A DNA stretch of 64,000 nt from Somniosus microcephalus (GCA_052327205.1 CM126225.1:38006001-38070000), one strand, 5' to 3'; numbered from the stretch's first letter, positions 17,115 to 58,448 are shown. Notes: generated by a model not told the origin, from the letters alone. Numbers and translations: made by a program.

Positions 17115-17151
17115 AGTTAACGTTTCAGGTCTGGGACCCTTCATCAGAACT
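17115..17151 (-). ncRNA. Minimal type I hammerhead ribozyme motif in the PLE 3' end
   Basis: Minus strand reads AGTT-CTGATGA-AGGGTC-CCA-GACCT-GAAA-CG-TT-AACT: stem I AGTT/AACT, intact core, stem II, palindromic ACGT stem III. Confidence 0.75.
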
Positions 17152-17269
17152 GGAAAAAGCTGGAAATGTAACATATTAAGCAGGTGCAGAGACAGGGGGG
17201 GTGTGGTGTTAGGGGAGGAAGGAATTGAAAGAACATACTGTGAAAATGTTGCAAATGGGAATGGCAAAA

Positions 17270-18354
17270 TCATACTGCATGAAAAATGGGGGCAGGGATT
17301 ATTATCTGAAATTGTTGAACTCGATATTGAGTCCGGAGGCTGGTGGGGTGAAAGGTGAGGACGAGGGGAACCCTATCGTGGTTCTGAGAGGGAGGGGAAG
17401 GGATGAGAGCAGAAGTGCAGGAAATAGAACGGACACGGTCAAGGGCTGTGTCAACCACAGTAGAGGGGAATCCTCGGTTGAGGAAAAAGGAAGACATGTC
17501 GGAAGCACTGGTATGGAAGGTGGCATCGTCAGAACAGACGCGGCGGAGACGGAGAAACTGGGAGAATGGAATAGAGCCCTTACAGGAAGCGGGGTGGGAG
17601 GAAGTGTAGTCCAGGTAGCTGTGGGAGTCGGTGGGCTTGTAGTGGATGTTTGTCGAAAGCCGATCGCCAGAAATGGAGACGGAGAAGTTAAGGAAGGGAA
17701 GGGAAGAGTCGGAGATGGACCATGTGAAGGTGAGGGAAGGGTGGAAATTGGAAGTAAAGTGAATGAACTTATCTAGTTCAGGGTGAGAGCAGGAAACGGC
17801 ACCAATACAGTCATCAATGTACCGGAAAAAGAGGTGAGGGAGGGGACCTGAGTAGAACTGGAACAAAGAGTGTTCCACATATCCCATGAACAGGCAGGCA
17901 TAGCTAGGGCCCATGTGGGTTCCCATAGCAACACCTTTAATTTGGAGGAAGTGAGTGGAGTCAAAGGAGAAGTTGTTCAATGTGAGAACAATTTCAGCCA
18001 GGCGGAGGAGGGTGGTGGTGGATGGGGACTGGTTGGGCCTCTGTTCAAGGAAGAAACAGAGCGCCCTAAGGCCGTCCTGGTGGCGGATGGAGGTGTCGAG
18101 GGATTGGACGTCCATAGTGAAAAGGAGACGGTTGGGGCCAGGAAACTGGAAACTGTTAAAGTGACGGAGGGCGTCGCAAGAGTCGCGAATGTAGGTGGGA
18201 AGAGACTGGACAAAAAGATAGTCGAGATAGGAAGTTCCGTGGGGCAAGAACAGGCTGAAACGATGGGTCTACCAGGGCAGTCCTGTTTGTGGATCTTGGG
18301 AAGTAGGTAGAAGCGGGTTGTGTGGGGTTGGGGGACTATGAGGTTGGCGGCCAT
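17270..18354 (-). pseudogene. PLE reverse transcriptase, 5'-truncated and frameshifted; endonuclease deleted
   Basis: FYLLPKIHK..PGRPIVS (17977..18354 frame), then TMDVQSL, QIKGVAMGTHMGPSYA, FRYIDD, FLNFSV, TNIHYKPTD, YLDYTSSHP (17270..18247 frame). Confidence 0.92.
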
Positions 18355-18366
18355 GGAGGGAAGATC

Positions 18367-19040
18367 TCCGTTCTATTTCCCGCACTTCTGCTCTCACCCC
18401 TTCCCCTCCCTCCCAGAACCATGATAGGGTTCCCCTTGTCCTCACCTTTCACCCCACCAGCCTCCACATTCAACGGATCATCCTCCGCCATTTCTGCCAC
18501 CTCCAACGTGATCCCACCACCAAACACATCTTCCCGTCACCTCCCCTTTCAGCATTCCGAAGGGACCGCTCCCTCCACGACACCCTGGTCCACTCCTCAA
18601 TCACTCCCAACAGCCTTTCTCCTTCACCAGGAACCTTCCCGTGCAAGCGCAGGAGATGCAACACATGCCCTTTTACCTCCTCCCTTCCCACTGTCCAGGG
18701 CCCCAAACACCCCTTCCAGGTGAATCACCGATTTACTTGTACTTCTTGCAATTTCATATACTGTATTCGCTGCTCACGATGCGGTCTCCTCTACATTGGG
18801 GAGACCAAACGCAGATTGGGCGACCGCTTTGCGGAACACCTCCATTCGGTCCGTAAGGGTGACCCTGAGCTTCCTGTCACTTTAATTCTCCGTTTCACTC
18901 CCACTCTGATCTCTCTGTCCTCGGCCTATTACATTGTTCCAATGAAGCTCAACGTAAGCTCGAGGAACAGCACCTCATCTTTTGATTAGGCACTTTACAG
19001 CCTTCCGGACTCAACATTGAGTTCAACAATTTCAGATAAT
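18367..19040 (+). pseudogene. PLE Cys-rich linker and GIY-YIG endonuclease, disrupted
   Basis: CKRRRCNTC and FIYCIRCSRCGLLYIGETKRRLGDRFAEH. A 7-nt deletion near 18874 relative to the 58 kb copy shifts the frame. Confidence 0.88.
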
Positions 19041-19105
19041 AATCCCTGCCCCCGTTTTTTATGCAGTATGATTTTGCCATTCCCATTTGCAACATTTTCA
19101 TAGTA

Positions 19106-19438
19106 CAGGAAACTTTGTGCTATCCGGCACCCACGGGACCGAGCTGCTGCCGTTGCCTAAAAAGTGCCGTACTCTCCAGAGTTAATGTTGAGAGATACGG
19201 AGATTCTTATCTCCGTATTTGACAACAAACACTGTTGCTTAGCAACAGCTTCTAAACACTCGGGTGTGGCCCTAAAGCTCTGTAGCTGAAGCTGTTGCTA
19301 TAGCTACAGACCTTGCACAACTTGACTGTTCAAACAAAGCAAAAAAAACAAACAAAAAGAATAAAAAACGGCTGCTGATTTTTGCCGGTGGCTCCAGATT
19401 GCCGGATAGCTCACCTCCGGATAGCACAAAGTTTCCTG
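19106..19438. mobile_element. Young Tc1/mariner-type MITE nested in the PLE 3' UTR
   Basis: Perfect 22-bp TIRs caggaaactttgtgctatccgg / ccggatagcacaaagtttcctg with TA on both sides. The empty site cagTAtgttc is seen in the other arm near 17235. Confidence 0.92.
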
Positions 19439-19712
19439 TATGTTCTTTCAATTCTTTTCTCCCCATCTAACCCCCTCCCCCCTGTCTCTGCACCTGCTTA
19501 ATATCTGTTACATTTCCAGCTTTTTCCAGTGATGATGAAGGGTCCCAGACCTGAAACGTTAACATCTCCACGGATGCTGCCTGGCCTGATGAGTATTTCC
19601 AGCATTTTCTGTTGTTATTTTGCTTCCAGTAGTTGATGGGTCTAGAATGAGGCGCCATAAATACAAGGTATAATGTGAGAAATTTAGAACAGAGAACAAG
19701 AGAAACATCTTA

Positions 19713-19840
19713 TACAAAAGCAAAATACTGTGGATGCTGGAAATCTGAAATAAAAACAGAAAATGCTGGAAGCACTCCGCAGGTCAGGCAGCATCTGTGG
19801 AGGGAGAAACAGAGTTAACGTTTCTGGTTGATGACTTTTG
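19713..19840 (-). mobile_element. Solo PLE 3' end (pLTR fragment) with decayed hammerhead
   Basis: acaaaagcaaaatactgtggatgctgg...agagttaacgtttc. Diverged TSD agagaaacatcttat / agagaagcatcttgt. Confidence 0.75.
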
Positions 19841-20932
19841 AGAGAAGCATCTTGTTGTGAGGCTGTTGAATTCACTTCCAGGGTTAGTGGTTCAGGCAGA
19901 AACTGTGTCAACATTCTAGATTAGATTGGTTCGGGAATGAAGGAATATGGGAACAGGGAAGGTAAATGTGATTAGGACTATTTTCTCTCATGGAGGGTAT
20001 ATGCCGACATGAACTGATTGGGCCAAAATGGCCTGTTTCCATGTTGTAACATCTGTGTATCTCTCTCTATATAAAGCCAGCGTGAAAGCTTTGCTATTTC
20101 ACTGGCTTAGAAGCTTCACGACAGCCCTAATTGCATTGTCATTGTGCACAAAGAGTTGACAGTGTTTCAAAAGCCGAAAGCTTAGTACACAGGCAGAACA
20201 GGGGGCAAAATAAAATATTTAAATAACTTGAAATGTTGTCAAATACTTGGATATGTATGGTTTGCAAAATTGTTGATAGATTCAAGCAGTGTTCCGATGT
20301 ACCGTATTTTGAGTACTAACATGCACTACCACAGTAGGACATGAGCTTGTTTCTCCTATTCTCAACACACTTGAGTTTCCAGTCTTTGCTGTGCATCAGG
20401 GGAAATGCAAGCTGGAAGTCTGGCATTTCCCTACAGGGAAAGAGGAGCCGTCAAAGGGCGAGCAATCCTGTAGCCTCCTTGGGTAACCCCCAGTAGCCAA
20501 GTAAAGAATGACATTCCAGAGGCTTGAAAATAGTTCACCTGTCTGCCCTTAACACCAGGGAATGTAGACCCATCGTGAGGGGGAAAATATTTTAATGTTA
20601 GAAATGAAAAAAATGCAAGTTTAGGTCTCAAGTGTTTAATTATAGGAACTAAAAATAAGTTGTGGGGCAGATATCTGCTCTTTGTTACTTGTGGTAAAAT
20701 TGTAAATGTGTTTATAATGAGCACATTTCCCTATTTCCTACAAATAGTGAACATAGGAAATCTCTCTTCCCACCACTGCCCCCCCCCCCTTCAATTCTTT
20801 GTACATGTTATAAAAAGCCACTTTATTTTAAAACCTGGCTGGAGTATGGGTAGCAGTCAGCTGACCATCAGCAGGCTGCTTGATCAGGGGAGCATCACAG
20901 TTAAGCCCAATACAGCCCTCACTTGATTTCGA

Positions 20933-21640
20933 CAACAACAACAATCTGTATTTATATAACGCCTTTAACGTAGTAAAATGTCCCCAGGGCGCTTCACAGG
21001 AGTGTTACAAAACAAAATTTGACACCGAGCCACATAAGGAGAAATTAGGGCAAAAGACTAAAGGATTGATCGAAGAGGTAGGTTTTACTGTGCATCTTAA
21101 AGGAGGAAAGAAAGGTTGAGAGACGGAGAGGTTTAGGGAGGGAATTCCAGAGTTTAGGTCAGAGGCAGCAGAAGGCACGGCCACCAATGGTTGAGCGATT
21201 AAAATCAGAGATGCTCAAGAGGCCAGAATTAGAGGAGCGCAGATATCTCGGTGGGGGGTGGGGGCGGGGTTGTGGGGCTGGAGGAGATTAGAGATGGGGA
21301 GGGGCGAGGCCATGGAGGGATTTGAAAACAAGGATGAGAATTTTAAAATCAAGGTGTTGCTTAACCGGGAGCTAATGTAGATCAGCAAGCACAAGGATGA
21401 ACGGGATTTGGTACGAGTTAGGTCACGGGCAGCCGAGTTTGGAATGACCTCAAGTTTACGTAAGATAGAATGTGGGAGTGCATTGGAATAGTCCAGTCTA
21501 GAGGTAACAAAGGCATGGATAAGGGTTTCAGCAGCAGATGAGCTGAGGCAGGGGCAGAGACGGGTGATGTTACAGAGGTGGAAATAGGCGGTCTTAGTTA
21601 TGGCGCTGATATGTTGTCAGAAGCTCATTTCAGGGTCAGA
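20933..21640 (-). mobile_element. L2 LINE 3' fragment
   Basis: (caa)n tail followed by tatttatataacgcctttaacgtagtaaaa. Collinear with 2995-3720. Confidence 0.85.
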
Positions 21641-22935
21641 TATTTCTGCACATAAATTTTACACATGTAACCTTCTGGTAAGGGTCCTTGGACAGCAGTC
21701 AGGGTCCATTTTAGTGCCTTAATACTATGGTGACACAGATCTCCTCGCTCAAACTGGACATCATACCTGAGACCTTCCTGCTTTGTTTGGCTATGCTCAG
21801 TGCTGGGTTTACTTCCTGAGCCACCAGGGAATTGCTTGGAGCACCTTTGTTCATGTTTGAAAGTGTATTTAACCCCAGTGCCGTAGCCAAAAGTATTTTC
21901 ATAGCAGTAATTGTGATAACATAAAGTCTGGAACTGTTGCTCCCCCCCACCACTGCTGTACATCTGTCATATCCTGGCATTTACTAGCAGTATTACCACA
22001 CTTTACCAGCTGCCATTTGGTTTTGAAACAACTTTACTTTCCGCACAATGACAAATTTTGGAGAGAATAATTTATTTGTCGTACTGTAGTATGTTCAGAT
22101 TGAGTTACTGTGCTGATGATGTGATATTTGGCTGATCTGGTTGTAGAAATGTATCAGAAATGCCTTGCCTTGCGCAAGTCATTTAATTGACTGTGTTCTT
22201 TATACGGCTTTCTTAGCCACCTCAGTTATTTTGTAATGTTTTGTAATTGTAACGTGAAAGGATGATATCATAGGTCCATCAATGTCATGCTGGTTGTTTT
22301 ATCCAATAAACTTAATGTTAAATATTTTGCTGCTGGAATCTCTGGGGTAAAGATCTTGCTGGAGCAAATAGAACAGATTTATATTCACAGACTGATTCTA
22401 CCTCTGCACTGTTGTAGGTCATGGTTGTTTCACACCGAGCACCGTTAGCAGTTCTGAAAACTGTTTACCCATTAATCTCTCTCTCCAACTGGCAGCATTC
22501 CCATTAAATTCACTTAGTATGTTTTTTTTTGCCCCCTTTAGTTTCTTTTATCTTATTTCTTTAGCTATACTGTTCAAACAGGATATTTTGTCGCGACAAG
22601 TGGGATTCGGCTACTCTTCGTAAATTGAAGAGTCCTAATTAATACACAATTGGGATTAGAAGTTTAATTTGTTTTTTTATCGCTGACTGGCTTTTCATTA
22701 TTTTGTTGTAAACCACGGCAGATGAATTCAACTGAAGCACACTGGGAATTGAGACTGAAACCTGCTATCGTCTGGTTTTGAGGCGGGTACTATTCTGCGT
22801 ATGGTATAGCGCTGGCGGAGAGTGGGTGGTTTCTAGAAAAGTAAGTTCAGTGATGTTCAGCTTCATAACCCAGAGGGTAAGAGGCCTGAATGGGCTATCC
22901 GGTTCAAGTCTTCCAAAGATAGTTTTTGTGTACAA

Positions 22936-23674
22936 GGGGCCAGTAATTCCGGTCCCCGTCCGTACTCACGCGTGGGCCCGTTGGAAGTGCCGGATTTCAG
23001 CATGCACAGCGCATGCGCGGGAAACCGGCATTTCCTCCAAGGGGTTCAGAGGTCCAACACGTGCGCGCAGGACTCTGCGCGCACGCGTTGAACTTCCTTC
23101 TTTTTGACAGGTTTGCCCATGTGTAAGGGCCTGAACTTTTTAGAAATGTAAAAAGGAGACGTAAGGACTTGATTCTTTAAGGTAAGTGGTCTATTATTTA
23201 AAATTATAACATTTTTTCCACAGCTTTATTGTTTTTAAGGACTTTACAGTAAGGTAAGTTTATTTTTAGACCCGATTTCTTAAAAAAATATTTTTTTCAA
23301 AAATTTGATTAATTGTTTAAAATAGTTTTTTTTAAAGTTATTTATAGTTCATTTAATTAGTGGGATGTTTTCTAAAATTTTATTTAAAGTTAAATTTTGG
23401 GCGCCCGTAGTTTTCATGAGTTTGACAGTTCTTACTATCAAACTCATGAATGAAGTTTCCCCTCCCCTGATTGGCTGCCCAGTGCTCACCTGATCCCAGC
23501 CGGCACATCGCACTAACTACGCCACTGGATCAGGCAAGCACATCGCGCCGACAGCTGAACCGGGCCAGTGACAGGAATTCCAAGCAGGCCCAGGCTTCAG
23601 CTGTCGGCGCGCCGGGTAAGTGCACATCGGGGGCTTGCAAGCGCGGCAAGCCCCCGATCCTAATTTCTGGGCCA
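22936..23674. mobile_element. CpG-rich MITE, Harbinger-like
   Basis: Imperfect terminal inverted repeats ggggccagtaatt / aatttctgggcc, GC-rich subtermini and an AT-rich core. Internal motif gcatgc..gcgcatgc is shared with 39639-40520. Confidence 0.6.
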
Positions 23675-23848
23675 TTATGTATTGCTGACTCATTTAATTT
23701 GCTACAATTTTTCTCCATTTAATTTTTTTCTGCTTGTTTGGGGCCTCTCTCGCACCTATATACTCTCACATCCAAAAATGGAGAAGAGTGACTTGCTTCT
23801 AGCCAAGCCTTTCTGTGTCATTCTTTAACAAGATGCTGGGACATACAA

Positions 23849-24026
23849 ATGTGAGAAGTCACACAACACCAGGTTATAGTCCAACAGCTTTATTTGAAAT
23901 CACAAGCTTTTGGAGCACTGCGCTCCGAAAGCTTGTGATTTCAAATAAAGCTGTTGGACTATAACCTGGTGTTGTGTGACTTCTCACATTCGTCCACCCG
24001 AGTCCAACACCGGCATCTCCACATCA
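23849..24026 (+). mobile_element. Miniature palindromic PLE derivative (second PLE family)
   Basis: 143-bp near-perfect palindrome at 23848-23990 (one mismatch, 5-nt loop) plus a 36-nt one-sided tail. 12-bp TSD TGGGACATACAA at 23837-23848 and 24027-24038. Centre GGAGC-actgc-GCTCC-GAAA-GCT resembles a hammerhead stem II plus GAAA. Confidence 0.75.
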
Positions 24027-24312
24027 TGGGACATACAAGAGAGTAGCTTAGGACTTGACTGACCATTTTCTCTCCCTGTGGCAAAAGTTCCCAGTTTCTC
24101 ACTAGGAAGTGCGACCTGTGATTTATCACTCCATTGTGTAGCTTTTTGGTATACATACCCACTGCACCAGCAGCCTTCACCTTTAGGTTTTAACCAAAAT
24201 GAGTCAATTCGAGAAGGATCTTGTGAGATTTTTAAACTTACATTGCTTAATCTTAACATGATCAGAAGACTCACCAAATGGCACCTTGGATCATTTTTCC
24301 TTTACTTTTTTA

Positions 24313-27246: not shown

Positions 27247-28960
27247 GGCCGAAAGCTCGCTGCCTATCTTATTGAAAGGACCTTGTTATGTAGAATTAGT
27301 TTTTCCAGTTTTAGTGGGCAAGAATCCATAGCACAAGTTGGCAGCCTCACTCTGATACCATTGGAAGATTTCCTCTATGCAATCATAAACCTGTTTATAA
27401 AGAACAGTTATAATTTTGCTACATGCAGAGTATAGAGGAAATCTTCCCCATAAGGGTAAATGATGTGGCAAATGGAAAAAATATCACCATGTTGTGGTGC
27501 AGTAATTGTTCTTCTGAGTTTGGAGTTGAAGTGCATTGCTGAGTAGGTTTGGCCAATGCTGTACCTTACTTGAAAGGTGTTGGTGCTGGGTGCCACGTGT
27601 ACAAAAGTGTTCCATTACTCAACAGTAATCATCGTGATGGGGGCAAAAACATCACAAAAGAAAAAAATATTGACATAAAAGCAGCTTGTTTTGCTTTAGT
27701 TATGTTACTTAAAAGACTCGCATGCCCTATTTTGGACTTAATAATACAGTAGGTCTGAGTGTTGATTTGGTTGCCATTTCATATGTCGGAGAATCCAAAA
27801 TGTTGTTTTTTCACATCGTGAATTAATACTTCATGGCCATTGGTGCAGGTCAATGTTACAGAATTAATTTTATAAGTCACCTTCAAAGTTTCATCCAGAT
27901 ACTGAACTATAGGAATAATAGAGCATTTCAGCCATGACACAGAATGAGGTGCGAAAGACAGCCATAGCTCACTACTTCCCGTGGAGCTCATGAGTTATGG
28001 GCTGTTCAAGCTTTAGAAGGAATTGCTGTAACTCACCGTCACAGGTGAGGTTCCCTTTGTTTAAAACATATGGAAAATACCCTAGAGGATGTTGTGGGGG
28101 ATTTGCAAAACAGTACAGCTTTGGTGTTTAGGATTGTAGCATTTCGGTCTTGCCCACCTAAAGACCTGTATCATACCTTTATGCTAATTTCAGGAAATGA
28201 AAAGAACGTTCTGCCCAGAACAATGCAATGTTGCTTTTGGAACATTAGTCTGAAAGATTTGTTACTCACAGTTTACAAAGGATACATTGAAGACAGAATC
28301 CAGGAAATGCTGCAGGATAGCTTGGGGCAGATGCAAAATGCAGATAGGTGTATATTTCTCATGCAAATTTCTTCTTCATCTGCTTTAGAGTAAAATATGT
28401 GAAGGTTTTCAATATTTTATAAAACTTTTTATTTAAATGTGGCTATTTAACTTTCGTTTTGCAAAAGGATTCCATTTGCACACTGGTGTGAAATACTGTG
28501 TAATAACAAGCTGTCGGTAATGGTTAATGAAGTTATAATGAACAAGAAGTCTGCCTGTATCTGTGGGGGTAACCACATTGTGATAATGTTGGGACATAGC
28601 GAGGATGAGCCTGTTTACAAAGAATTGACTTATGGATAAATGCACCACCCATGTGTGGTACTGAGACGTACAAATAAAAGTAAGGTCACTTGTTCAAATC
28701 AAGAACTGGACACGACAATTAGCCTCAACGTCCCTGATGATATCCGTTAACTCAGTACTGACCAAGGATCAAACCTCGGCAGGGAAAGTGAAAATCAGCC
28801 ACGGTTCTTCATCACTATCCAGGGACCCCTGCTGGAAAGTGCACATTTGTAGGCACAGGGTAAGGACTGGATCAGCCTCGGATGTGATGCCCCACAGTTG
28901 AATAGTCTGTTGACATTCACTGTCTGGACTCATAACTGAAGAATGGCTACTTGGATGAGA

Positions 28961-29284
28961 TAAAAACAGAAAATGCTGGAAATGCTCAGCAGGTTCGATT
29001 TCCCAGTGTCCTATTATAAACCCGAAAGACACTACACATTTCCAGTAGAACTTCCATTTTAGTTTACTGCAAAACAGCTCACGCACATACCTTGGAAGTT
29101 GCATTAAAATGGTACTTTGTAGTGGACAGAGAAATAAAGTTAACGTTTCAGGTCGATGACCTTTCGTCTGACCTGAAACGTTAACTCTGTTTCTCTCTCC
29201 ACAGATGCTGCCTGACCTGCTGAGTATTTCCAGCATTTTCTGTTTTTATTTCAGATTTCCAGCATCTGCAGTATTTTGCTTTTG
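28961..29284 (+). mobile_element. Miniature inverted PLE pLTR pair containing a 129-bp templated insertion
   Basis: Tailless inverted arm at 28961-29168 and tailed arm at 29170-29284. Centre agttaacgtttcaggtc...gacctgaaacgttaact. Diverged TSD tacttggatgaga / tacttggggtgaga. Inserted into a family-B SINE. Confidence 0.8.
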
Positions 29285-31459
29285 TACTTGGGGTGAGATG
29301 CTGGATGGCTGCTGACATCTGTGGAATTTTATCTTACCATTAGTCAGTGCTTTCAGGAGAACGGGAGAAAACCAGAGGAAAAAACAAAATAAAATGATCA
29401 CTACTAGCATGGAAAAGAATGCTAACGTGCCGACAGCTTCTTGCTTATTGTTGACATCAGATTCTGGGCCTACTAACAATGCTATATGAATCTAAGAGGA
29501 AATTTTCCAATGGGTGATCTTTTTGTGTGAGCACTTAAGGCAATCCTGCCAGCATTATTTAAAGGCAGGCATTAACCCGACCATGTTTGACATTGAAAGC
29601 ACAGTGCAGGTTAAAATGGCAGCTGCTGTTAAATGGAATGACTGTTGATAACTGCAGCACCAAGCAACAGTTAAGTCAATTGCAGTGATCTAATGGGTAT
29701 GTAGTACCTAGGCATTATTCGATATAGTACTCTAGCAGTGAAGATCGTGACTTTTTGAAATACTGTCAAGTTTACTGGTCAGGACAGTGCTAATTTTCAG
29801 GTCTCCTTTGTTCCTCTTGTTCATTGCTCGATTTCCCAGTGTCCTATAATAAACCCGAAAGATGCGACACATTTCCAGTAGAACTTCCATTTTAGTTTAC
29901 TGCAAAACAGCTCGCGCACATACCTTGGAAGTTGCATTAAAATGGTACTTTGTAGTTTGCAATATCACCATAGTTGTGTTTCAAAACCATTTCCTACAAC
30001 CAAGAATAAAAAGATTCAATGAGTCTGATTAATTATTAGTAAACATGTTTTTGGATTATTCATCAGTAGGAGTGAAAATAAATAAAGGTGAGTGACATGC
30101 CTCCTCCCCTCCCTGCAGCTCACTCGCCATCATCTGTTTATACAGTCTGTGGATGTGCTATTGTAATCAATTGCTAATTGGATCCATTGATGCAACTCAG
30201 CTGCTCGATGCCCTGTAGCCTCCTGCCGTTCCCCTGTGTAACAATTGACATTTAAAAAAAAAGAAAATTTGTACTTTTCAAAGCCCAGAAAACTACAATT
30301 CAACAAATTGTTAATGGCCGAGAAAACACATAGGTCTGTCTGTAGCCATACCATGTGTCCTATGGCAGTGAAAGATTTGACAATCTGATATTTTTTTTTG
30401 CTAAGCTTCATTGCCTCTGCTGTTCAGGAGAAGCTTGTACTGTGGTAATCCCAATTGAATGAGAACTGCATATGGTTTTCACTAACCCTTGACGTCAACC
30501 AGTAAGTGCATCAGATGGTATTGGATTTCAACTTCACCATTATAGAATAGGGCAAACAGTTCAGGAGAAGTGAGTTTTAAAAATGATTTGCTTCTCTGCA
30601 GTCTCCCCATCCCCAGTAATTTGAATGTTTCCCCACTTTAGGTTTGCTTGAACCATTACTCTATGAGGGGACAGGAAAGTGACCTGTACCCAGATCTCTC
30701 CCATCACTCACCCTCTCGGCAGTAGCTTTGCCTCTCCCTGGCACTTGCCCTTAGATAATCTAACTGAAATTGGGAGTTTGAGACAGGAAGAGATTTTGCT
30801 TGCAGTGGCATCAGAGCACATTAATCACCGTTCACATGCTGCTTTTTGATTTGGAACAGTAGGCAACGGCGAACAAATTTGAGAGTGTTAAGGCTGTGCA
30901 ACATTTCTATATTGCAAAATGGAACTTTTTGTGGCTGGTTAACAATATCAAACACAATTTGAGAAGTTCAGGCCTGTTGTGATCTTTACAATAGGAAGAA
31001 AATCTTAAAAATTTTTGTTTGAAGATTTTACTCATTTTTATTTCTTTCATTCCTCCTTTCCCATCGCTTTTCTCCCTCCTCACCTTGCTGAGATGCAGTT
31101 CTTTGGGTACCAGTCTTCTTCCAGTACCTCTCTCAAGTGGCCATTCCTCATTTGCGAGCCAAGACAGACAGTTTGACCATATTAGCGCAATAGCATGAAT
31201 GACCCAAGATTCATGCATATGTACTTCCAGCAGTTTTCATTTTTAATGATCAAGTGTCGAAACCCAAGCTGATTTTCCCTTCCATAACCCAGGAACTCTG
31301 AGGCCAATTGTAGTACCCTAACGTCAGCGAACTCTGCATAGACATGGGGACTTCCCTGGTCTGTACAACTCTGCTGGTTACTACCATAACTAGTCAAGCT
31401 GTTTGAAAACTCCAGATCGATTTTCCTGACCTTTGGTCCTTTCCGCAATTCTGCAAAGG

Positions 31460-34407: not shown

Positions 34408-34975
34408 TAGAATCATACTGCACAGAAGGAGGCTATTCGGCCCATCGTGTCTGTGCCGGCTCTTTGAAAGAGCTGTTCTATCAATCCCACTCCCCCGCTC
34501 TTTTCCCATAGCCCTGCAAATGTTTCCTTTTCAAGTATACAGGAGACTTTGTATTATCCGGCACCGACGGGACCGAGCTGTTGCCGTTCCCTCAAAACTG
34601 CTGGACACACCAGCGTTAATGTTGAAACATACGGAGCTTTTCATCTCCGTATCTGACAACAAACACTGTTGCTTAGCAACAGCTTCTAAACAGTCGGCCC
34701 GTACCTTGGAAGCGTCTCTGTAGCTTAGCAACAGCTTCAGAGAGACTTTCCAGAGCCTGACTGTTGGGAAAAAAAAAGCCACGAGAAGGAAAAAAAAAGC
34801 CACGAGAAGGAAAAAAACCTAACAAAACGGCTCCTGATTTTTGCCGGTGGCTCGAGCTTGCCGGACACTTAGCCTCTGGATAACACAAAGTTTCCTGTAT
34901 ATCCAATTCACTTTCAAAAGTTACTATTGAATCAGCTTCCACCACACTGTCAGGCAGTGCATTCCAGATTATAAC
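34408..34975 (-). mobile_element. CR1 3' fragment interrupted by a MITE
   Basis: tagaatcatactgcacagaaggaggctattcggcccatc... resumes after 34899 with tatccaattc...caggcagtgcattccaga. Confidence 0.8.
34540..34897. mobile_element. CAGGAAACT-family MITE
   Basis: TA|caggagactttgtattatccgg...ggataacacaaagtttcctg|TA. Internally collinear with 19106-19438. Confidence 0.88.
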
Positions 34976-35519
34976 AGCAGCAATTTCTTATGTTCAAGAA
35001 GCATTGTTGCCAATATCAGACCGTCTTAAAAGGAGAAATAACAGCAGAAAACGCTGGAAAAACTCAGCAGGCCAGGCAGCATCTGTGGTTGTTTTTTAAC
35101 AGCTGTGAAGATAATGAGGGGGATGTGTTCGTCCACCTCATTCTTTTGGCAAGAGTTTTTTCCTCTTCCCAGAAGGAAAGATAATGGGTGGAATCATTTA
35201 CTGCTGCTCGTGACTCCCCTTGCTTTCTCGGCCTTGACTCCTGTTTCTCCAACCCAGAATCCAACTACGACCCTAGCCCTAACTCCTGCTGCTTTTACAG
35301 CCTTGAATCCAGTTACAGAGGTATGTGGATAGTAGTAAGGCATACTGTACTGCGTACCTACTTCATGGGCACTATTCTTATTCTTTTGTCTGAACTCTTT
35401 TGGGTATGTTCAGAATAATCAACAATTTAAAACACATACGGTTATAATTTGAGAGAGAGCACTCTTCTCTACTTAACTCAAACAGACCATCACTTTCATT
35501 AAGAATTGACAAACACTTA

Positions 35520-44060: not shown

Positions 44061-44650
44061 ATCATAGAATGATACAGCACAGAAGGGCATTCAGTCCATC
44101 GTGCCTATACCGGCTCTTTGGTAGAACTATCCAGCTAGTCCCACTCCCTCGCTCTTTCCCTATAGCCGTGCAATTTTTTTTGCCTTCAAGTATTTATCCA
44201 ATTCCCTTTTGAGAGTTATCAGTGAATCTATTTCCACCACCCTTTCAGACAGTGCATTCCCGACCACAACAATTCACTGTCGCCTCTGGTTCTTTTGCCA
44301 ATCACAAATCTGTGTGTAATAAAAACAGAAAATGCTGGAGATACTCAGCAGGTCAGGCAGCATCTGTGAAGAGAGAAACAGAGTTAACGTTTCAGGTCGA
44401 TGACCTTTTGTCAGAACTCTGTGTGTCCTGGAGCTGACCCTTCTGCCACTGGAAACGGTTTCTTATTTACTGTATCAAAACTGTTCATGATTTTGAACAC
44501 CTCTATCAAATCTCCTCTTAATCTTTTCTGCTCTAAGGAGAACAACCCCAGCTTCTCCAGTCTCTACTCATAACCGAAGGCCCTTACCCCAGAAATCTAG
44601 TAAATCTCTTCTGCACCCTGTTAAGGCCTTGACATCCTTCCTAAAGTGTA
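44061..44650 (-). mobile_element. CR1 3' fragment interrupted by a solo PLE end (about 44318-44417)
   Basis: aatcatagaatgatacagcacagaagg tail. The PLE piece is flanked by a tctgtgtgt duplication and its hammerhead core is mutated to CTGACAA. Confidence 0.8.
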
Positions 44651-47010: not shown

Positions 47011-47244
47011 CTTGCAGATGGACTTGCCAGTAGAGTAGGTCACTTTAGACTGTGAAATGCAAAATGACGATTAGTTAAAAGTGCAATTGCTCCTCCGTTT
47101 CTTCAATATAATATATACTTGCTGGAGTGCCCGGCGGTGCCTAGTGTTTTTTGAGGGCATCATGTTATGAAAAAAGTAGAAATAATTTTTATTATATATA
47201 TAAATGAGTTTGTCTGTCTGTGTGGGAAGGCGAAAGAGAGAGAC

Positions 47245-47701
47245 TGGGGCGGGGGGAGAGAGACTGGGGGGGGTGTGTGTGGGGGGGTGGGTGTGTGGGG
47301 GGGGAGGGGGGTGGGGTGGGTGTGTGGGGGGGAGGGGTGTGTGGGGGGGAGGGGTGTGGGAGGGGGGTGGGGTGGGTGTGTGGGGGGGTGGGGGGTGGGT
47401 GGGGGGTGGGGTGGGTGTGTGGGGGGGTGGGGTGGGTGTGTGGGGGGGTGGGGTGGGTGTGTGGGGGGGAGGGGTGTGTGGGGGGGAGGGGTGTGTGGGG
47501 GGGAGGGGTGTGGGGGGGGGAGGGGGTGTGTGTGGGGGGGGAGGGGGGTGTGGGGGGGGTGTGGTGTGGGGGGAGGGGGGGTGGGGTGGGTGTGTGGGGG
47601 GGAGGGGGGTGGGTGTGTGTGGGGGGGGAGGGGGGTGGGTGTGTGGGGGAGGGGGGTGGGTGTGTGGGGGAGGGGGAAGGGGGGGTGTTGCGGGGGGGGG
47701 C
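47245..47701 (+). repeat. G-rich minisatellite-like tract, G-quadruplex-prone
   Basis: About 450 bp of G3-G9 runs joined by T, A or TGTGT; essentially no C on this strand. Confidence 0.95.
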
Positions 47702-48305
47702 GTTCTTGGGCCGCACGGTTGACGCCGCGGGGAAGGCCGTGCGCGGCGGCTCCCACTCCCGACCGTCGCAGCGGCTTGCCTGCGGCCTAGTCGAGGGGGG
47801 GAAAGCCCGAGTCCCCGGCCCGCAGCCGCAAACGGAGCCGAGCCCCGGGACCGGGCCGAGGGGGGGAAAGCCCGAGGCCCCAGCTGCCCATTGGGCCCGC
47901 CGCACCGCGCACCATCGCTGATCCGCTCCAGCCGGCCGCCGCTGCTTGAGGAGTTAATGTCTGGAGGTTTGAATAAAGTTGAGAGGAGTGAGGAGGGAAG
48001 TCTTCTCTCTGCACCTTTGCTCAAGAATCCTGCTGAAACGCCGAGTGGGAGCGGGATACTGTGCCGGAGCCGCAATGTGGGGATTTGTTGTGCTGTCGCT
48101 GTCAGTATTAAAAAAAAAAAATGGCGGCGACGTTTCGGGAGGCTGCAGGATTAGGCCCGCCCACACACGGAATGAAACGCCCCCCGTGACACACCGATTG
48201 GTCAACCATCAGGTCACTGAACTGCAGGATTGGTCAACCATCACGTCACTCAACGCTAATGAGCGGTAGGATTGGTCAACCGCTAATGAGCGGATTTTTG
48301 AACGT
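47700..48305 (-). promoter_or_regulatory. CpG-island promoter and probable first exon of an unidentified gene
   Basis: High CpG density. GATTGGTCAACC (inverted CCAAT) at 48196, 48228 and 48270; CRE-like TCACGTCA at 48241; GC box GGCCCGCCC at 48154; YY1-type AAAATGGCGGC at about 48118-48128. Direction inferred from motif order. Confidence 0.72.
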
Positions 48306-49183
48306 TTTTTGTATACTGTCCAAACAATTTTTGTCTGACGTTCCTTTGTCCACTAGTTTACTGTAGGCATTAACCTGTTTATTTTTAAACCGGTTAGTAT
48401 TTGCATTAAAATAACAGGGTGTAGAATGTCATCGAAACATGTTAAACAGGGGAATGCTAATATCACAAGCAGTTATTTCTTACACTGAGTTGCCTAAATT
48501 TGCTTTACAGGAAGCTCGGAATCTCAGTAAAACCATTTGTAGAAGTCATGGGTAAATGTAAGAAAATATATATAGGATAATAATTACAGGGCAGTAATAC
48601 AATGAATGGTTCACATGACATTATAAACTACAAGGGTACTTTCTGTATCGTGTGATTACCGGCAATGTGGAACAGGTCCAGTCTGAACGAGTGCTAACGC
48701 ATCTTATGCACATTTGAGTCTTGCCCCGTAAAGCAGCTGATCATTTGTACAAATAGAGAACATGGAGTGTTCCACACAACTAACAGTCCAAAGTACTGTA
48801 TCTTTGTTGTGGTTTCATTTTATCCCTCTTCCCTGCCAAGTATTAACTCTTGCTTGGGTACAGTTCCATGGGTACTGTCGGTTTTCGGCATCACATCCGC
48901 AAGAGCATTCTTCGTATTTAAGCAACAGAAGTGATTGTTGGCAGGCTATTGGAGGGATTCACCTAACAATCCTGATTTGGTTTTCTCTTAACATCCAGGC
49001 ATGTGCACTTTCCAGTATGAATTGCCAGAAAGGGATCAGAAGTGGGAACCTTGGCTGATTTTTTTTTAAACCCCTCCTAGTTAAAGGGTGCTGAGGTCAA
49101 TTGAAGCAACTCAACTGCTGCGTAGGTGAGATCAGTTAGCTCGGCAAATTCTGGGAATCAAGCCATCTCCAATTATAGCTTAT

Positions 49184-49320
49184 ACAAAAGCAAAATACTG
49201 CGGATGCTGGAAATCTGAAATAATAACAGAAAATGCTGGAAATGCTCAGCTGGTCAGGCAGCATCTGTGGAGCGAGTAACAGAGTTAATGTTTCAGGTCA
49301 ATGACCTTTCATCAGAACTG
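49184..49320 (-). mobile_element. Solo PLE 3' end with hammerhead core
   Basis: Minus strand AGTT-CTGATGA-AAGGTC-ATT-GACCT-GAAA-CA-TT-AACT followed by the tailed 3' end. Confidence 0.8.
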
Positions 49321-50448: not shown

Positions 50449-50466
50449 GTCCACTAGAGGGCGCAT
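50449..50466 (+). promoter_or_regulatory. CTCF-binding motif
   Basis: gtCCACTAGAGGGCGCat matches the core consensus CCASYAGRKGGCRS at all positions, in non-repeat DNA. Confidence 0.65.
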
Positions 50467-51742: not shown

Positions 51743-52112
51743 ATAACCAAAGTCGTCCTTCCACTTGTTCAACTGAAGGAAATGTTTTGGAGTTTTCGCT
51801 AGTGTGTTTACCGAAGGTGACACTCAACGAGTGAAGCATAATGATCTTTCCATGTGTCTCCTCCTGCCCAGAGTCAGTACCAGGAAATTAGAAACTAAAT
51901 CAAGGGGTAATCGAGGAAAGTTAAAGTCCTGATTCATGTTTGTTGTTCTGAAGATCTCCGTTGGTGTGTGGACTACTGGAAATTAAATGCTGGGATTTAT
52001 GTAGATGCATACAGAACCTGCGCTATAAATTGACTATCCTCAATGCTTTGAGTGGTGTCTACGTAAATGGGTTCGAGAGACAATTGAGGGCATTTCTGGG
52101 GAGAGATTGGAA

Positions 52113-52548
52113 GGGCTCTGCTGCCCACATTCTAACCCGAACCAAGTCCCGTTCACCCATCATTCCTGTGCTCGCTGACCTGTATTGGCTTACGGTTCAC
52201 CAACACTTCAGTTTTAAAATTCTCGTCCTTATATTCAAATCCCTCCATCACGTCGCCTCTCCCTATCTCTGTAACCTCCTCTAGTCCTATAACCTCCAAG
52301 AATTCTGCGTTCTTCCAACTCTGGACTTTTATGCATCCCCATTCCCTTCGCCTCCCCATTTGCGGCTGTGCCTTCAGCCGTCTAGCTCTGAACCTCTGGA
52401 ATTCACTACCTAAATCTCACCGCCTCTCTACCTCTCTCTCCTCCTTTAAGACCCTCCTTAAAACCTACCTCTTTGACCAAGCTTTCAATCACCCATCCTA
52501 ATATCTCCTTTGGCTCTGTATCAATTTTTGTTTGATTACTCTCCTGTT
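52113..52548 (+). mobile_element. L2 3' fragment
   Basis: SAAHILTRTKSRSPIIPVLADLYWL...FKSLH..ASPYL. Confidence 0.85.
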
Positions 52549-53804
52549 CAAATTCTTATGTTCTTATTGCAAAGAAATATATCACTGGCCACATCTCCAG
52601 GAGTTGATGTCAACTGTCAAATCTTAAAGAGCCTTGAGCATAACCAGGAAAACTCACTTTGTTTAACCAGCTTCCAATTACGTGAATGAAAATGAATAAA
52701 AGGAATACAGCATTTCAAACTCGTGCTTAAGATTTTAGACTGCAGACTGCTTCTCAAATAGGCTGATATCTGATCATAGTTAAGAAGCAGCCAGATGTCA
52801 CTGTATGTTGATAACTGAACATTTAAAGGAGCAATGCCAAGCTGGCCCATTCAGTGCAAAGTTCGGGGGACCAATAAGGGGAAACCTTTAAAACCGTTGG
52901 CCTCTTTTGAATTGTAAAGAGATGTAGCTGTTCCTTCCAATCCCACGTTACCATCATTTGCTCTGTTGTAAGTACCTTTCCCTGGCTTCCTGTGACTTTT
53001 GTCTATCTAATTAAATTTACACATCGCTAGTTCCTGTTTGATGCCTAATAGCGGTGATGAATGGCGTCTTTTTGGAGGCTGACAGTAACAGATACCTGAC
53101 ATTTTTCACTCTGTCACAGCTCCCTGCTTCTCCAAGCACTTCTGACCCTATTGTTTTGGGGGTAATTACCATGTTGTACTTCATCATGCTCCCAGACATA
53201 AATGACAGCGCCCCTGTGAAACAAATGAGCGAAGGTCGGACGGAGCAGCTACCTACTCGCCAGCTCCCAATTACAGGTTACCACATGCTAAAGTAGCTCG
53301 GAATGTCAGGCAGTAACGCACTTCCCAAGTCTCAATTAATCACGGAAACCATAAGGAGTTGCAGCCACTGTTTGTAACATCAGTAAAGTCAAACTGACAC
53401 TTCCACTCTGAGATCATTAAGCTCGGCTGCCAGCACCTATCTTAGGCCAAAATCTTCGACAAAGTCAGAGAACAAAAGCTCTGTTTTTACTGGAAACTAA
53501 TGTGGGATGGATCCAGTGAAGAGTTTAATCCCTCCTGTGTAAATTCAGCCCAGAATTATGTTATGGTGTGATACTGACACGTCGAGCTGTGGGTTTTAAT
53601 ATCACATGCTGCATTAAAAAGCAATCTAACTAGTGTCTGAACAAGTCTCCAGAATAACCCTCCGCCCAGGCTGTTTCCACACAACTGTGTGGTGGCATCT
53701 ACTACAACCTTTACAGCTCAGACCTTACCATGGCGGTCGATAGCTGGAGTGAACTTCACCAGAATTTCTAATGGGTGTCAGTGTAAACCGAGCTGTGAAA
53801 AATA

Positions 53805-54371
53805 AGCCCAGATTTTAATTCCCGGCGGGAGTCATGCATGCGGGAGCTGAGGTGGATGGGAAATCATTTAGCCCTCTGCAGCGTGAGATGCAGGAGATTT
53901 TAACTCTCAGGCCTCATTGGCATAGACGCCGTCAGCCTCCCGCCTGATCCTGGCAGGAATCTCCAGCTGGCCGACGGGTAGGAGTGGCATTTCGGGCAGC
54001 AGGAGGCTACCATAGCGACCTGAAGGAACGGTCCCTGGCAGTCAGGTAAGTGGTTAGGAGTAGGGTCAGGAGGGCCTCATGGTCGGGGAATGAAGCCCAG
54101 GGCAGGGGAGCCCCCAACTTTCCTTGTTGGGGGGGGCCTGGAGGAACAATCAGATGTTGGATTAAAATTGCAATCAGGGCCTGATGACATCAACAGAGCT
54201 CGATCTGCATATTTAAAGCAGAACCCCGCTGCCTACCGCCTGCTCAAAAGAGCAAGTTAAAATTACAATCCGTGGGAAGGCAGCAGGTTCGGGGTGGGGG
54301 GGAAGAGCTACGGGCATTTTACCTGCCCGCCAGCCCGATTTCTGCTGGATGGCCAAAGTTAAAATCGGCCC
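53805..54371. mobile_element. Harbinger-like MITE
   Basis: Ends gcccagattttaa / ttaaaatcggccc; GC-rich interior. Confidence 0.55.
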
Positions 54372-54568
54372 TTTAGTGGGTAAATGCACTGTTCGGTGTG
54401 GTATTAAGCCAGAAACCAAACGGTCTCAGATTCGTTCCCCAGCCTGTGCTGTGTTAGCGGATCTCAGTCAGGGTGGCAGTGGTGGAGCTACAATAAGCCT
54501 CAACATCTCTAGGCTGGCGGAGGGAAATAAAGTCAGCCAGAGGTGCCATTCTTGATTTCTATCCAGTA

Positions 54569-54893
54569 CAGGAAACTTTCGATTTACCGGCACCTAAATA
54601 ACCGGAAATCTCGGTTAACCGGCAAAATTCAGGAGTAGGTTTTACTTCATATTGTACTTGCCTTCCTCCAACTGGTGCTGTGCAAGGGTGTGGCTGCAGC
54701 TGTTGCTAAGCTACAGAGACGCTTGGAACTTGAGGCCATTGTTCTGCACTTGTTGCTAAGCAACAGGGATTGTTGCTTTATATGGAGCTCTGAGCTCTCC
54801 CTATCTTTTACTATAGCATTCGGTTATCCGGAATTTTTGATGAACCGGCACCACGTCGGTCCCGTCAGTGCCGGATAAAAAAAAAGTTTCCTG
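54569..54893. mobile_element. CAGGAAACT-family MITE, opposite orientation
   Basis: TA|caggaaacttt...aaagtttcctg|TA. The end tcggtcccgtcagtgccggata mirrors the start of the 19106 and 34540 copies. Confidence 0.85.
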
Positions 54894-54899
54894 TACTTA

Positions 54900-55333
54900 G
54901 AAAAAGAAAACAAAAGACTTTCATTTATATAGCGCTTTTCACAACGTCAGGATATCTCAAAGTGCTTTACAGCCAATGAAGTACTTTTGAAGTGCAGTCA
55001 GTGTTGTAATGTAGGAAATGTGGCAACCAATTTGTGCACATCCAGCTCCCACAGACAGCAACGTGATAATGACCAGAGAATCTCTTTTTCTTTTAGTGAT
55101 GTTGAGGGACAAATACTGGCCAGAACGCCAGGGAAAATTCCCCTGCGATCTTTTGCATCCACCTGAGAGGGCAGATGTGTCCTTGGTTTAATGTCTCATC
55201 CAAAAGACAATGCAGCACTCCCTCAGTACTGCACTGGGAGTGTCGGCTTGGATTTTGTGCTCAAGTCTCTGGAGTGGCACTTGAACCCACGACCTTCGGA
55301 CTCAGAGGCAAGCGTGCTACCACTGAGCCACAG
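54900..55333 (-). mobile_element. Near full-length Deu-domain SINE
   Basis: Collinear with 26781-27246, including the tRNA head (ctgtggctcagtggtagcacg...gggttcaagtgcc on the minus strand). Confidence 0.85.
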
Positions 55334-56917
55334 CTGGAAAGTATGCATATGGAGACCTGATTGGGCTTGACTGTGAAACCTTCTGCAGTCGATTAACTGG
55401 CCGACCAGGATCACACGTGAAGAATGTTCACTAGGGCAAGAGGCTGGAGGCCTGCCAGCATTCGCAGCCAGCCCCTTCAGGAGAGAGGGAGAGAAAATTG
55501 GGTTTAAAAAAAAATAAATCAGAACTGTGCAGTCGCTGGTAAAATATTCATGAGCCCAAGAAGCTCAACAGTGCAAAATGATAGTGATAGATTTCTCTTG
55601 CCACCTCTTGATGACCAGCTCAGAGCAGCATTAGTGAAGGTTTAGGGAGCAGGTCACTTTTCCTTCTTTGGTGCAGTTAGTCTATAGCCTGCATTGACCA
55701 GAGGAATGTATTGAAAAAGTATCATCCTCCGATTTCTGTTTTGCAAAGTATGTCAGAATTTTGCAAGTCCTGTTATAAGTGTTGATGTTCTTGTGCCTAA
55801 ACATTTTATTTGTGTATTTACTATAGCTATTAAAATACATTTATAAGTAATATCCCAATTAAGTCATCAAGTTTCATTTACAATGACTCATGCCCAAGGC
55901 TGACTTCTAGACCTGACATAAAATAGAAGTACAGAACACGATGATAAATGCGCGTCTAATTGTTTAATTAAGTGCTTTCTGCTATCGCATATTAGAAGCT
56001 AATAATTTTCAAAGTATATATGGTGTTGGGTGTTAGCTTGAGATAAAGTAAGAATTGGCTTTGGGCGATAACATAATCGAGGTGTTGTAATCATCTCATA
56101 GACCACAACAGCGTGTTTGAACGGTTTGTGTCGTGACCTAAGCTCCAAAGCTGTGTTGCAGCCAGTCGTGCATTCCCAGACAACTACTGTTTTGTGCAAC
56201 AGATGCAGGACTGAGCCATTTTAATATTTTTACACTTGGTAAGCTTAGCTCCTGCTGTGTTTTGTAGTTTCTGTTTGTGGCACCTGGTTAAAGTTTGCTG
56301 TTTGGATTTTTTCATGTGCAATCCACTAAAAGCTTCTGGCGTTTGGATTCCAATCCTTCTCTACCAATGTGTTTTGCCTTTTCTGCAGGTGCAATTTCGG
56401 TTCCTTGCTTGCATTCTCTGACTTTTGTTCAGGTTCCTATCTTAAATTTAGCAGTTAAAAATACACAGAAGTTACAACATGGAGCTGGGCCCAATCAATC
56501 TGTGCCAGCATTGATCCTCCATCTGAGCGTAGACGGGGGGAGGAGGTAATAACACGCAATAAACCTTCTCTTCTGTCACAGTCATGTGACAGGAAGGGAC
56601 CATGATCTGTGAGGGTGTTTTGCAAAATGTTACATGGCTCTCCTACTTTAGGTTTCCAATGTAATTGTAAGTGAATTGCAGCCTGTAAGGATTGTTCATT
56701 TGGTTTATAAAGATGTGACTTTTCCAAAATGTCGAACTTTCCAGCACATGAGGCCATTCAGCTCGTGCCTACATTGATGTATCTTGTTCTTAAAAACTAA
56801 ACAGAGCTCCGTATGTTTAATATAATAGCAAAATACTGCGGATGCTGGAAATCTGAAATAACAGAAAATGCTGGAAATACTCAGCAGGCCAGGCAGCATC
56901 CGTGGAGAGAGAAACAG

Positions 56918-56954
56918 AGTTAACGTTTCAGGTCTGGGACCCTTCATCAGAACT
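56918..56954 (-). ncRNA. Minimal type I hammerhead ribozyme motif
   Basis: Identical to 17115-17151. Confidence 0.75.
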
Positions 56955-57074
56955 GGAAAAAGCTGGAGATATAACAGATATTAAGCAGGTGCAGAGACGG
57001 GGGGAGGAGTTTAGGAGGGGAGGAAGGAATTGAAAGAATATGTTGTGAAAATGTTGCAAATGGGAATGGCAAAA

Positions 57075-57572
57075 TCATACTGCATGAAAAATGGGGGCAG
57101 GGGCTATTATCTGAAATTGTTGAACTCTATGTTGAGTCCGGAAGGCTGTAGATGTGCCCAATCGAAAGATGAGGTGCTGTTCCTCGAGCTTACGTTGAGC
57201 TTCATTGGAACAATGCAATAGCCCGAGGACAGAGAGATCAGAGTGGGAGTGAAGTGGAGAATTGAAGTGACAGGCGACCGGAAGCTTAGGGTCAACCTTA
57301 CGGACTGAACGGAGGTGTTCCGCAAAGCGGTCGCCCAATCTGCGTTTGGTCTCCCCAATGTAGAGGAGACCGCATCGTGAGCAGCGAATACAGTATACTA
57401 GATTGCGAGAAGTACAAGTAAATCGCTGTTTCACCTGGAAGCGGTGTTTGGGGCCCCGGACAGTGGGAAGGGAGGAGGTAAAAGGGCATGTGTTGCATCT
57501 CCTGCGCTTGCACGGGAAGGTGCCAGGTGAAGGAGAAGGGCTGTTGGGGGTGATTGAGGAGTGGACCAGAGT
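57075..57572 (-). pseudogene. PLE GIY-YIG endonuclease, inverted arm, frameshifted near the C-terminus
   Basis: NLVYCIRCSRCGLLYIGETKRRLGDRFAEH...EEQHLIFRLGT, then a frame change. Confidence 0.88.
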
Positions 57573-58258
57573 GGACAGTCCGTTCTATTTCCCGCACTTC
57601 TGCTCTCACCCCTTCCCCTCCCTCCCAGAACCACGATAGGCTTCCCCTTGTCCTCACCTTTCACCCCACCAGCCTCCACATTCAACGGATCATCCTCTGC
57701 CATTTCCGCCACCTCCAACGTGATCCCACCACCAAACACATCTTCCCCTCACCTCCCCTTTCAGCATTCCGAAGGGACCGCTTCCTCCGCGACACCCTGG
57801 TCCACTCCTCAATCACCCTGAACAGCCCTTCTCCTTCGCCTGGCACCTTCCCGTGCAAGCGCAGGAGATGCAACACATGCCCTTTTACCTCCTCCCTTCC
57901 CACTGTCCAGGGCCCCAAACACCCCTTCCAGGTGAAACAGCGATTTACTTGTACTTCTTGCAATCTAGTATACTGTATTCGCTGCTCACGATGCGGTCTC
58001 CTCTACATTGGGGAGACCAAACGCAGATTGGGCGACCGCTTTGCGGAACACCTCCGTTCAGTCCGTAAGGGTGACCCTGAGCTTCCGGTCGCCTGTCACT
58101 TTAATTCACCGCTTCACTCCCACTCTGATCTCTCTGTCTTCGGGCTATTGCATTGTTCTAATGAAGCTCAACGTAAGCTCGAGGAACAGCACCTCATCTT
58201 TCGATTAGGCACTTTACAGCCTGCCGGACTCAATATCGAGTTCAACAATTTCAGATAA
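57554..58258 (+). CDS. Uninterrupted C-terminal part of the PLE ORF: Cys-rich linker plus GIY-YIG endonuclease (5'-truncated; homology starts at about 57578)
   Basis: RLPLVLTFHP, AFRR, PCKRRRCNTC, FTCTSCNLVYCIRCSRCGLLYIGET..R..RFAEH, VACHF, EEQHLIFRLGTLQPAGLN. No native start, so translation is not implied. Confidence 0.7.
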   Translation: MRSGPEWTVRSISRTSALTPSPPSQNHDRLPLVLTFHPTSLHIQRIILCHFRHLQRDPTTKHIFPSPPLSAFRRDRFLRDTLVHSSITLNSPSPSPGTFPCKRRRCNTCPFTSSLPTVQGPKHPFQVKQRFTCTSCNLVYCIRCSRCGLLYIGETKRRLGDRFAEHLRSVRKGDPELPVACHFNSPLHSHSDLSVFGLLHCSNEAQRKLEEQHLIFRLGTLQPAGLNIEFNNFR

Positions 58259-58411
58259 TAATCCCTGCCTCCATTTTTCATGCAGTATGATTTTGCCATT
58301 CCCATTTGCAACATTTTCACAGGATGTTCTTTCAACTCCTTCCTCCCCTAACACCACCCCCACCCCTGTCTCTGCACCTGCTTAATATCTGTTACATTTC
58401 CAGCTTTTTCC

Positions 58412-58448
58412 AGTTCTGATGAAGGGTCCCAGACCTGAAACGTTAACT
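58412..58448 (+). ncRNA. Minimal type I hammerhead ribozyme motif
   Basis: AGTT-CTGATGA-AGGGTC-CCA-GACCT-GAAA-CG-TT-AACT on the plus strand. Confidence 0.75.

Follow-up and report, generated by a model that had tools for sequence, protein, structure and literature searches.

The 64,000-nucleotide stretch of the Somniosus microcephalus genome analysed here (GCA_052327205.1 CM126225.1:38006001-38070000; hereafter, the window) carries several insertions of a Penelope-like element (PLE), on whose ends lies a short motif with the architecture of a minimal type I hammerhead ribozyme. The 37-mer AGTT-CTGATGA-AGGGTC-CCA-GACCT-GAAA-CG-TT-AACT is identical at 17115-17151(-), 56918-56954(-), and 58412-58448(+); re-reading of the sequence confirmed this identity, which had been reported in the initial annotation. 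In the 6.4-Gb genome, 4,616 exact copies of the 37-mer were counted (0 for the reversed control), and a degenerate pattern of the intact core, CUGANGA-stem II-GAAACGUUAACU, gave at least 33,103 matches (1 for the control). These relics, tens of thousands in number, mostly sit on broken element ends. Rough scaling of 53 copies in 764 kb to the pattern count placed the family at 100,000-400,000 copies, a loose estimate because the sampled blocks exceed the genome-average density of pattern matches.

Motif numbering starts at the A of AGTT (+1). Stem I consists of +1..4 paired with +34..37, the core occupies +5..11, and an extra A (+12), stem II (+13..25), GAAA (+26..29), and CG-U (+30..32) follow. 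The predicted cut lies after +33 (GUU/AACU), in the register of the published alignment (Cervera 2014, PMC4209133). A UUA cut-site register was rejected, since it would put a C-U mismatch into stem III and conflicts with that alignment. The CUGANGA and GAAA core with NUH at the cut site is present, and the one unpaired base between positions 9 and 10.1 was A in 25 of the 25 commonest haplotypes. This extra nucleotide between A9 and stem II had been recognised in the initial annotation and compared with that of the viroid CChMVd; it is indeed there, and already belongs to the published PLE consensus. A study by De la Pena and Flores (2001) is said to concern CChMVd.

Variation was examined in 185 motif-spanning copies taken from 240 unique copies (144 pattern-picked and 96 incidental), a sample in which pattern-picked copies are over-represented and the copies share kinship. 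The palindromic pairs 15.2-16.2, with no or only a tiny loop 3, were CG in 173 of the 185, and the remaining copies had mostly CA/TG, as CpG decay predicts. The stem II pair 10.1-11.1 was G-U in 115 copies, A-U in 48, G-C in 16, A-C in 0, and some other combination in 6. It was thus paired in 179/185, with G-C in only 16, whereas G10.1-C11.1 exceeds 80% in the published consensus. The stem II loop varied among copies, and the earlier proposal that it changes while pairing is kept (G-U versus A-U) reflects real covariation at this base, although the counts correspond to few changes because the copies are related. The young CCA-loop (37-mer) subfamily showed 1.9% divergence and an older subfamily 6.7%; in a third, position 3 is U, stem II comprises four pairs, and the cut site reads GUC. 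An Rfam scan of the window returned no hammerhead model at E<=1. The architecture fits the published PLE hammerhead consensus, extra base included, and non-G-C 10.1-11.1 pairs are on record for coelacanth and frog members; this fit supports the initial assignment to minimal type I hammerheads of the PLE pseudo-long terminal repeat (pLTR) with a palindromic ACGU stem III. By the features tested, the motif is a PLE minimal hammerhead for which self-cleavage is predicted.

The element itself encodes a reverse transcriptase (RT) and a GIY-YIG domain. In the window arms, the motif lies at the 3' end, sense to the open reading frame (ORF) and ~155 nt past its stop. A search with the 5' part of the ORF gave 30 loci, and a pattern-matching motif stood just upstream in 17 of them, as in a partial-tandem pLTR arrangement. 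The motif was therefore found on both sides of the ORF and sense to it, which is the both-pLTR position. In full-length copies, it precedes the conserved start codon of the RT/GIY-YIG ORF by ~170 nt. In 3 of the 17 loci with an upstream motif, the reading frame that starts at the core AUG remains open for 702-703 codons into the RT; homologous proteins align only from M56 (~+173), and hence the motif belongs to the leader and not to the conserved protein. Locus L205 matched the RT family PF00078 (E 7e-6) and has DKG and YIDD motifs, GIY-YIG was found in three window ORFs, and the L062 ORF spans RT to the end of GIY-YIG, indicating a single ORF with a C-terminal GIY-YIG. A CX2-5CxxC linker precedes GIY-YIG in 67 of 68 homologs longer than 800 aa, and the window ORFs have CKRRRCNTC there. 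Such a linker marks the Neptune and Nematis clades, and Poseidon is without it; by this motif, the element is a Neptune/Nematis-type PLE. The closest named proteins were those of Chiloscyllium, Mobula, and Stegostoma.

Partial-tandem and inverted insertions with a target-site duplication and an optional tail were present. The 3' ends of the 240 copies were bimodal: 125 were short (~+103), 101 long (~+136), and 14 other. Classifiable head-to-head pairs combined a long and a short end in 43 of 52 cases, versus 50% expected (p 1e-6), and a target-site duplication of at least 9 nt was seen in 27 of 56 pairs. The two arms of a head-to-head insertion share a single target-site duplication, and usually one of them ends long and the other short; this count of the one-sided tail in pairs is added here.

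At the 5' ends, genome-wide junction counts revealed no enrichment at the cut site. Starts there numbered 174, versus 20,582 copies running through, and the neighbouring offsets gave 86 and 116; on inspection, 18 of 30 cut-site starts were flagged as deletions or rearrangements. From these counts, cut RNA left no clear mark, which fits the mainly uncut template of PAc (Poseidon of Anolis carolinensis; Frangieh et al. 2024, PMC11167929). The 5' ends at -1..+4 comprised 31 independent copies in 6 positions versus 31 in 46 upstream positions (p 1e-13), and such starts were observed in 31 of 107 copies of the older subfamily versus 1 of 64 of the 37-mer subfamily. Genome-wide, 1,399 copies started at +1, 416 at +3, and 225 at +8, versus 19,098 running on upstream. 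When +1 starts were inspected, 13 of 30 traced to a single insertion that travels within another repeat, while AGT microhomology with the target was seen in several of the rest. The absence of cut-site enrichment and the near-confinement of the motif-start pile-up to the older subfamily are added here. For the older subfamily, these junctions make an RNA that begins at +1 plausible; an RT stop or junction microhomology could also be the cause. An untemplated cap G is not claimed, since G precedes the motif in 4 of 17 independent +1 loci and a clean duplication accompanies it in none. A spliced short first exon before +3 was likewise rejected: the upstream sequence is not shared, and duplications abut the start in many stubs. 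Contigs from four presumed-RNA runs of related organisms cover the family; no GT..AG joint was found among the 15 joints listed of 58, and RNA ends are not visible in such contigs.

Two further observations concern the junctions. L261, L263, L267-L270, and others hold one hammerhead stub with its target-site duplication inside another, spread repeat, an arrangement that accounts for ~37 of the first 100 +1 matches. Furthermore, 616 genome copies start at +30 behind GCC, GGC or CCC, a recurrent junction class that points to either a chimeric family or a favoured target.

The decay of inserted copies was assessed in 34 unselected copies at ten non-CpG core positions, with subfamilies kept apart and G8 handled separately. 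Mismatches occurred at 12 of 333 core positions (3.6%) versus 68 of 1,746 flank positions (3.9%; p 0.88), and G8, a CpG site in most copies, was mismatched in 5 of 32. Inserted copies were thereby shown to decay at the flank rate, that is, neutrally. Core conservation (CTGANGA/GAAA) thus holds between element lineages and not within genomic copies, where core and flank behave alike.

The insertions and stubs of the window, delimited by self-comparison, are summarized below. All seven sites listed in the initial annotation read as it described them, of which only 3 are fully intact, and its picture of one hammerhead per strand in each inverted insertion applies to 56821-58510 only; at 17017-19620, the plus arm is dead. 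The left-arm RT of insertion 1 shares 89% identity over 228 aa with the RT of the full-length copy L205, and its right arm is split at 19104-19440 by another element. The motif at 49283-49319(-) keeps its core and has ACAU in stem III, by which the palindrome is lost, and that at 44382-44418(-) carries G8>A (CTGACAA). The site at 29138-29186 is a junction of two truncated arms with CUGANGA on neither strand. In random blocks of the genome, a head-to-head partner lay within 4 kb for 18 of 47 copies, and the core was kept in 17 of 47.

Features of the PLE family in the window
Feature	Position	Strand	Details
Intact minimal hammerhead	17115..17151	-	Young CCA-loop subfamily; from sequence, predicted cut after letter 33
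Insertion 1, left arm	17017..18366	-	RT fragment, 3' untranslated region (UTR), hammerhead, long end (~+135)
Insertion 1, right arm	18367..19620	+	GIY-YIG region (PF01541, E 1e-4), short end (~+102)
Dead hammerhead	19528..19563	+	C3 lost (ATGATGA), deletion 3' of cut site
Insertion 1, target-site duplication	17003..17016 (left), 19621-19634 (right)	+ (left)	14 bp
Insertion 2, left arm	56821..57573	-	GIY-YIG end, 3' UTR, long end
Intact minimal hammerhead	56918..56954	-	CCA-loop subfamily
Insertion 2, right arm	57579..58510	+	Linker with CX4CxxC, GIY-YIG, short end
Intact minimal hammerhead	58412..58448	+	CCA-loop subfamily
Insertion 2, target-site duplication	56807..56820 (left), 58511-58524 (right)	+ (left)	14 bp, 1 mismatch
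Solo stub	49183..49320	-	Older subfamily, starts at motif's first letters
Solo stub	44315..44418	-	Older subfamily, starts at +1, target-site duplication
Complex head-to-head insertion	28956..29286	.	No intact core; truncated arms on both sides of a 129-bp piece copied from nearby DNA
Degenerate solo stub	19713..19846	-	Absent from the initial annotation
Tail-only fragment of PLE family	35035..35088	-	No hammerhead

Several further observations were made in these regions. The insert at 19104-19440 resembles a miniature inverted-repeat transposable element, with 24-bp terminal inverted repeats and relatives at 34538-34900 and 54567-54909. The 129-bp piece within 28956-29286 is 96% identical to 29828-29956, ~550 bp downstream, and likely arose by a template switch to nearby host DNA during insertion. 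Elsewhere in the window, 23872-23967 forms a near-perfect 96-bp hairpin, probably a small foldback element, which weakly matches plant miRNA models due only to its hairpin shape; 47236-48150 is a G-rich degenerate tandem array adjoining a GC-rich stretch, a candidate promoter. Among the element copies, L205:1100-1240 and its equivalents have three stretches of a pyrimidine run plus AG, possible 3' splice sites, two of them closely flanking the motif's start and the third ~100 nt past it. L063:1116-1877 and 7364-8121 are internal deletions that join the 5' part of the ORF to the hammerhead end with 98% mutual identity, possibly a non-autonomous derivative. L063 and L064 contain long Ty3/gypsy-like gag-pol ORFs inside or beside the PLE copies, and L067:233-1306 (-) is an intronless 358-codon ORF, glycosyltransferase-like by eye.

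Here, we propose, with a probability of about 85%, that the motifs are PLE minimal hammerheads which are passively copied on truncated ends and whose action is likely limited to RNA of the element itself. By analogy with PAc, the element protein would nick both DNA strands ~14 bp apart, each nick would prime reverse transcription at either of two internal sites close behind the motif, with mostly uncut RNA as template, and the two cDNAs would be joined head to head. Judging from the literature, cleavage, where it occurs, would need two motifs paired via ACGU/ACGU, probably with the element protein, and would serve the element by processing tandem or read-through precursors at GUU/AACU. After insertion, the copies decay at the rate of their flanks.

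Some points weigh against this proposal. The double-hammerhead fold reached -8.5 kcal/mol versus -19.3 for the best dimer and ~-8 for each of two monomers, and in the best fold of the monomer, core and cut site are paired to each other; because the active fold is unfavoured in these predictions, cleavage by this family may be slight or absent. The junction counts cover neither +33 nor +35 and are noisy because the +30 control gave 616 matches, which were dominated by one recurrent junction class and set aside. In addition, some entries in the list of head-to-head pairs are falsely paired and one locus is counted twice (L161/L162), and the clade was assigned from a motif.

Two other roles for the motif were weighed on the same evidence. 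In this lineage, it may work mainly at the RNA 5' end, through RNA pairing or as a structural leader, and bring two templates together for two-strand priming, with cleavage minor. The unseen cut-site footprint, the older-subfamily stubs starting at -1..+4 (31/107), the genome-wide starts at +1 (1,399), +3 (416), and +8 (225) versus 19,098 running on, and the long and short ends combined in 43/52 pairs would all agree with such a role, as would PAc insertion, which is unimpaired by hammerhead mutants (PMC11167929). However, the pile-up is nearly absent from the 37-mer subfamily (1/64), the inspected +1 starts included 13/30 from one insertion in a repeat and others with AGT microhomology, both arms could come from one RNA, and the catalytic core is kept across subfamilies, which speaks for catalysis. 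We therefore regard this role as rather unlikely. Its more specific form seems distinctly unlikely: an uncut RNA starting at the hammerhead's first letters would be the template, a protein dimer would prime two strands at two internal sites, and the palindromic hammerhead would pair templates instead of cutting. If true, it would explain what PLE minimal hammerheads are for. The motif could also be an inactive vestige whose appearance is preserved by other demands on the same sequence, such as those of a 3' splice site, the reading frame, or a promoter. It directly adjoins a pyrimidine run with CAG, as at the intron end in Drosophila Penelope, the ORF frame of the young subfamily is opened by an AUG within the core, and the active fold is unfavoured. 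Nevertheless, the motif lacks conservation at the protein level, since homologous proteins start only at M56, the core AUG is mostly missing from the older subfamily, 10.1-11.1 varies among G-U, A-U, and G-C but is never A-C, and the same architecture is maintained across animals; we consider a vestige very unlikely.

The initial annotation further suggested that genomic copies could cut the host pre-mRNAs crossing them, one copy of an inverted insertion being sense whichever strand is transcribed. Several points favour it: the genome has at least 33,103 intact-core matches, the core is kept in 17/47 random-block copies, insertion 2 carries an intact copy per strand, and several sense copies are possible in one long transcript. 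On the other hand, the antisense arm of a tail-out inverted insertion is transcribed before the sense copy on either strand, and the sense copy was predicted to be 100% paired to it for either strand of insertion 2. In a folded 1,761-nt read-through of this insertion, every base of the sense motif lay in the long duplex and the probability of stem II was 0; a single arm folded alone formed stem II (p 0.6-0.8) and not stem I. With one sense copy, a dimer in cis is impossible, and published minimal motifs had no in vitro activity as single copies and cleaved weakly as dimers. The PAc motif depends on the element protein (PMC11167929). Selection for or against the core was not seen in the 34 copies, and head-to-head pairs hold only 18/47 random-block copies. 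The window has 397 unmasked ORFs, and a Pfam scan of the longest 150 gave nothing at the cut-off and no host exon; short exons could escape it. The suggestion is thus not upheld, as the sense copy is predicted to be fully paired, no selection on the core was seen, and no host gene is shown in the window. We hold host-transcript cleavage by the copies to be highly improbable. If it occurred, a shark genome would bear a very large intronic ribozyme load, and the evidence is against this.

The shark family bears on the role of PLE hammerheads in general. Because it is young (~2% divergence), includes full-length copies with an open frame, and has left insertion junctions by the tens of thousands, counting can serve to test models of where the template starts, which priming sites are used, and whether cleavage occurs. 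The extra nucleotide, the palindromic stem III, the inverted insertions, and the one-sided tail have been published (Cervera 2014, PMC4209133; Craig 2021, PMC8557442; Frangieh 2024, PMC11167929). In the literature covered, which leaves out subscription journals, Repbase, and supplement file 1 of Cervera 2014, no report of PLE hammerheads in a shark was found, and the searched portion of supplement file 2 of that paper has no shark entry (PMC4209133).

Like the minimal hammerheads of Cervera and De la Pena 2014 (PMC4209133), the shark motifs are of type I topology, have CUGANGA with an extra base, GAAA-CG-UH without a stem III loop, and a short stem I, and are dispersed mostly as single motifs on truncated PLEs, with opposite-strand pairs nearby. 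They differ in that the commonest 10.1-11.1 pairs are G-U or A-U and not G-C, although the supplement of that paper includes G-U and A-U in coelacanth and frog, and in number, with at least 33,103 in the shark versus counts of 4,000 and 9,000. Non-LTR retrozymes also have type I hammerheads at very high copy number (126,247 in axolotl) and are dimer-dependent in vertebrates (PMC7229834; bioRxiv 10.64898/2026.07.22.740005). They are tandem 170-400 nt units with canonical motifs, whereas the shark copies are dispersed PLE ends; a retrozyme identity was rejected, as Tandem Repeats Finder detected no tandem array of hammerhead units in the window and the motifs are minimal and on PLE ends.

PAc cuts and extends both strands and has two internal RT start sites; its hammerhead is protein-assisted, and uncut RNA is the main template (PMC11167929). 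In both PAc and the shark element, a hammerhead lies where pLTR and ORF meet, the two kinds of 3' end are separated by 30-40 nt, there is no sign of a cut-RNA template, and, by analogy, both strands are probably primed. The two kinds of 3' end correspond to the known tail, which in PAc marks the two internal RT start sites. The CX2-5CxxC linker is present in the shark element and not in Poseidon, and the start codon, which is inside the motif in PAc, lies ~170 nt past the motif's first letter in the shark. Like the endonuclease-positive PLE insertions of Craig et al. 2021 (PMC8557442), the shark insertions are truncated at the 5' side, form partial tandems, include a 5'-truncated copy in inverted orientation, and carry a tail of 30-40 bp that is frequently confined to one end; they differ in that the one-sided tail was counted (43/52) and in the subfamily-specific pile-up of 5' ends at the motif start.

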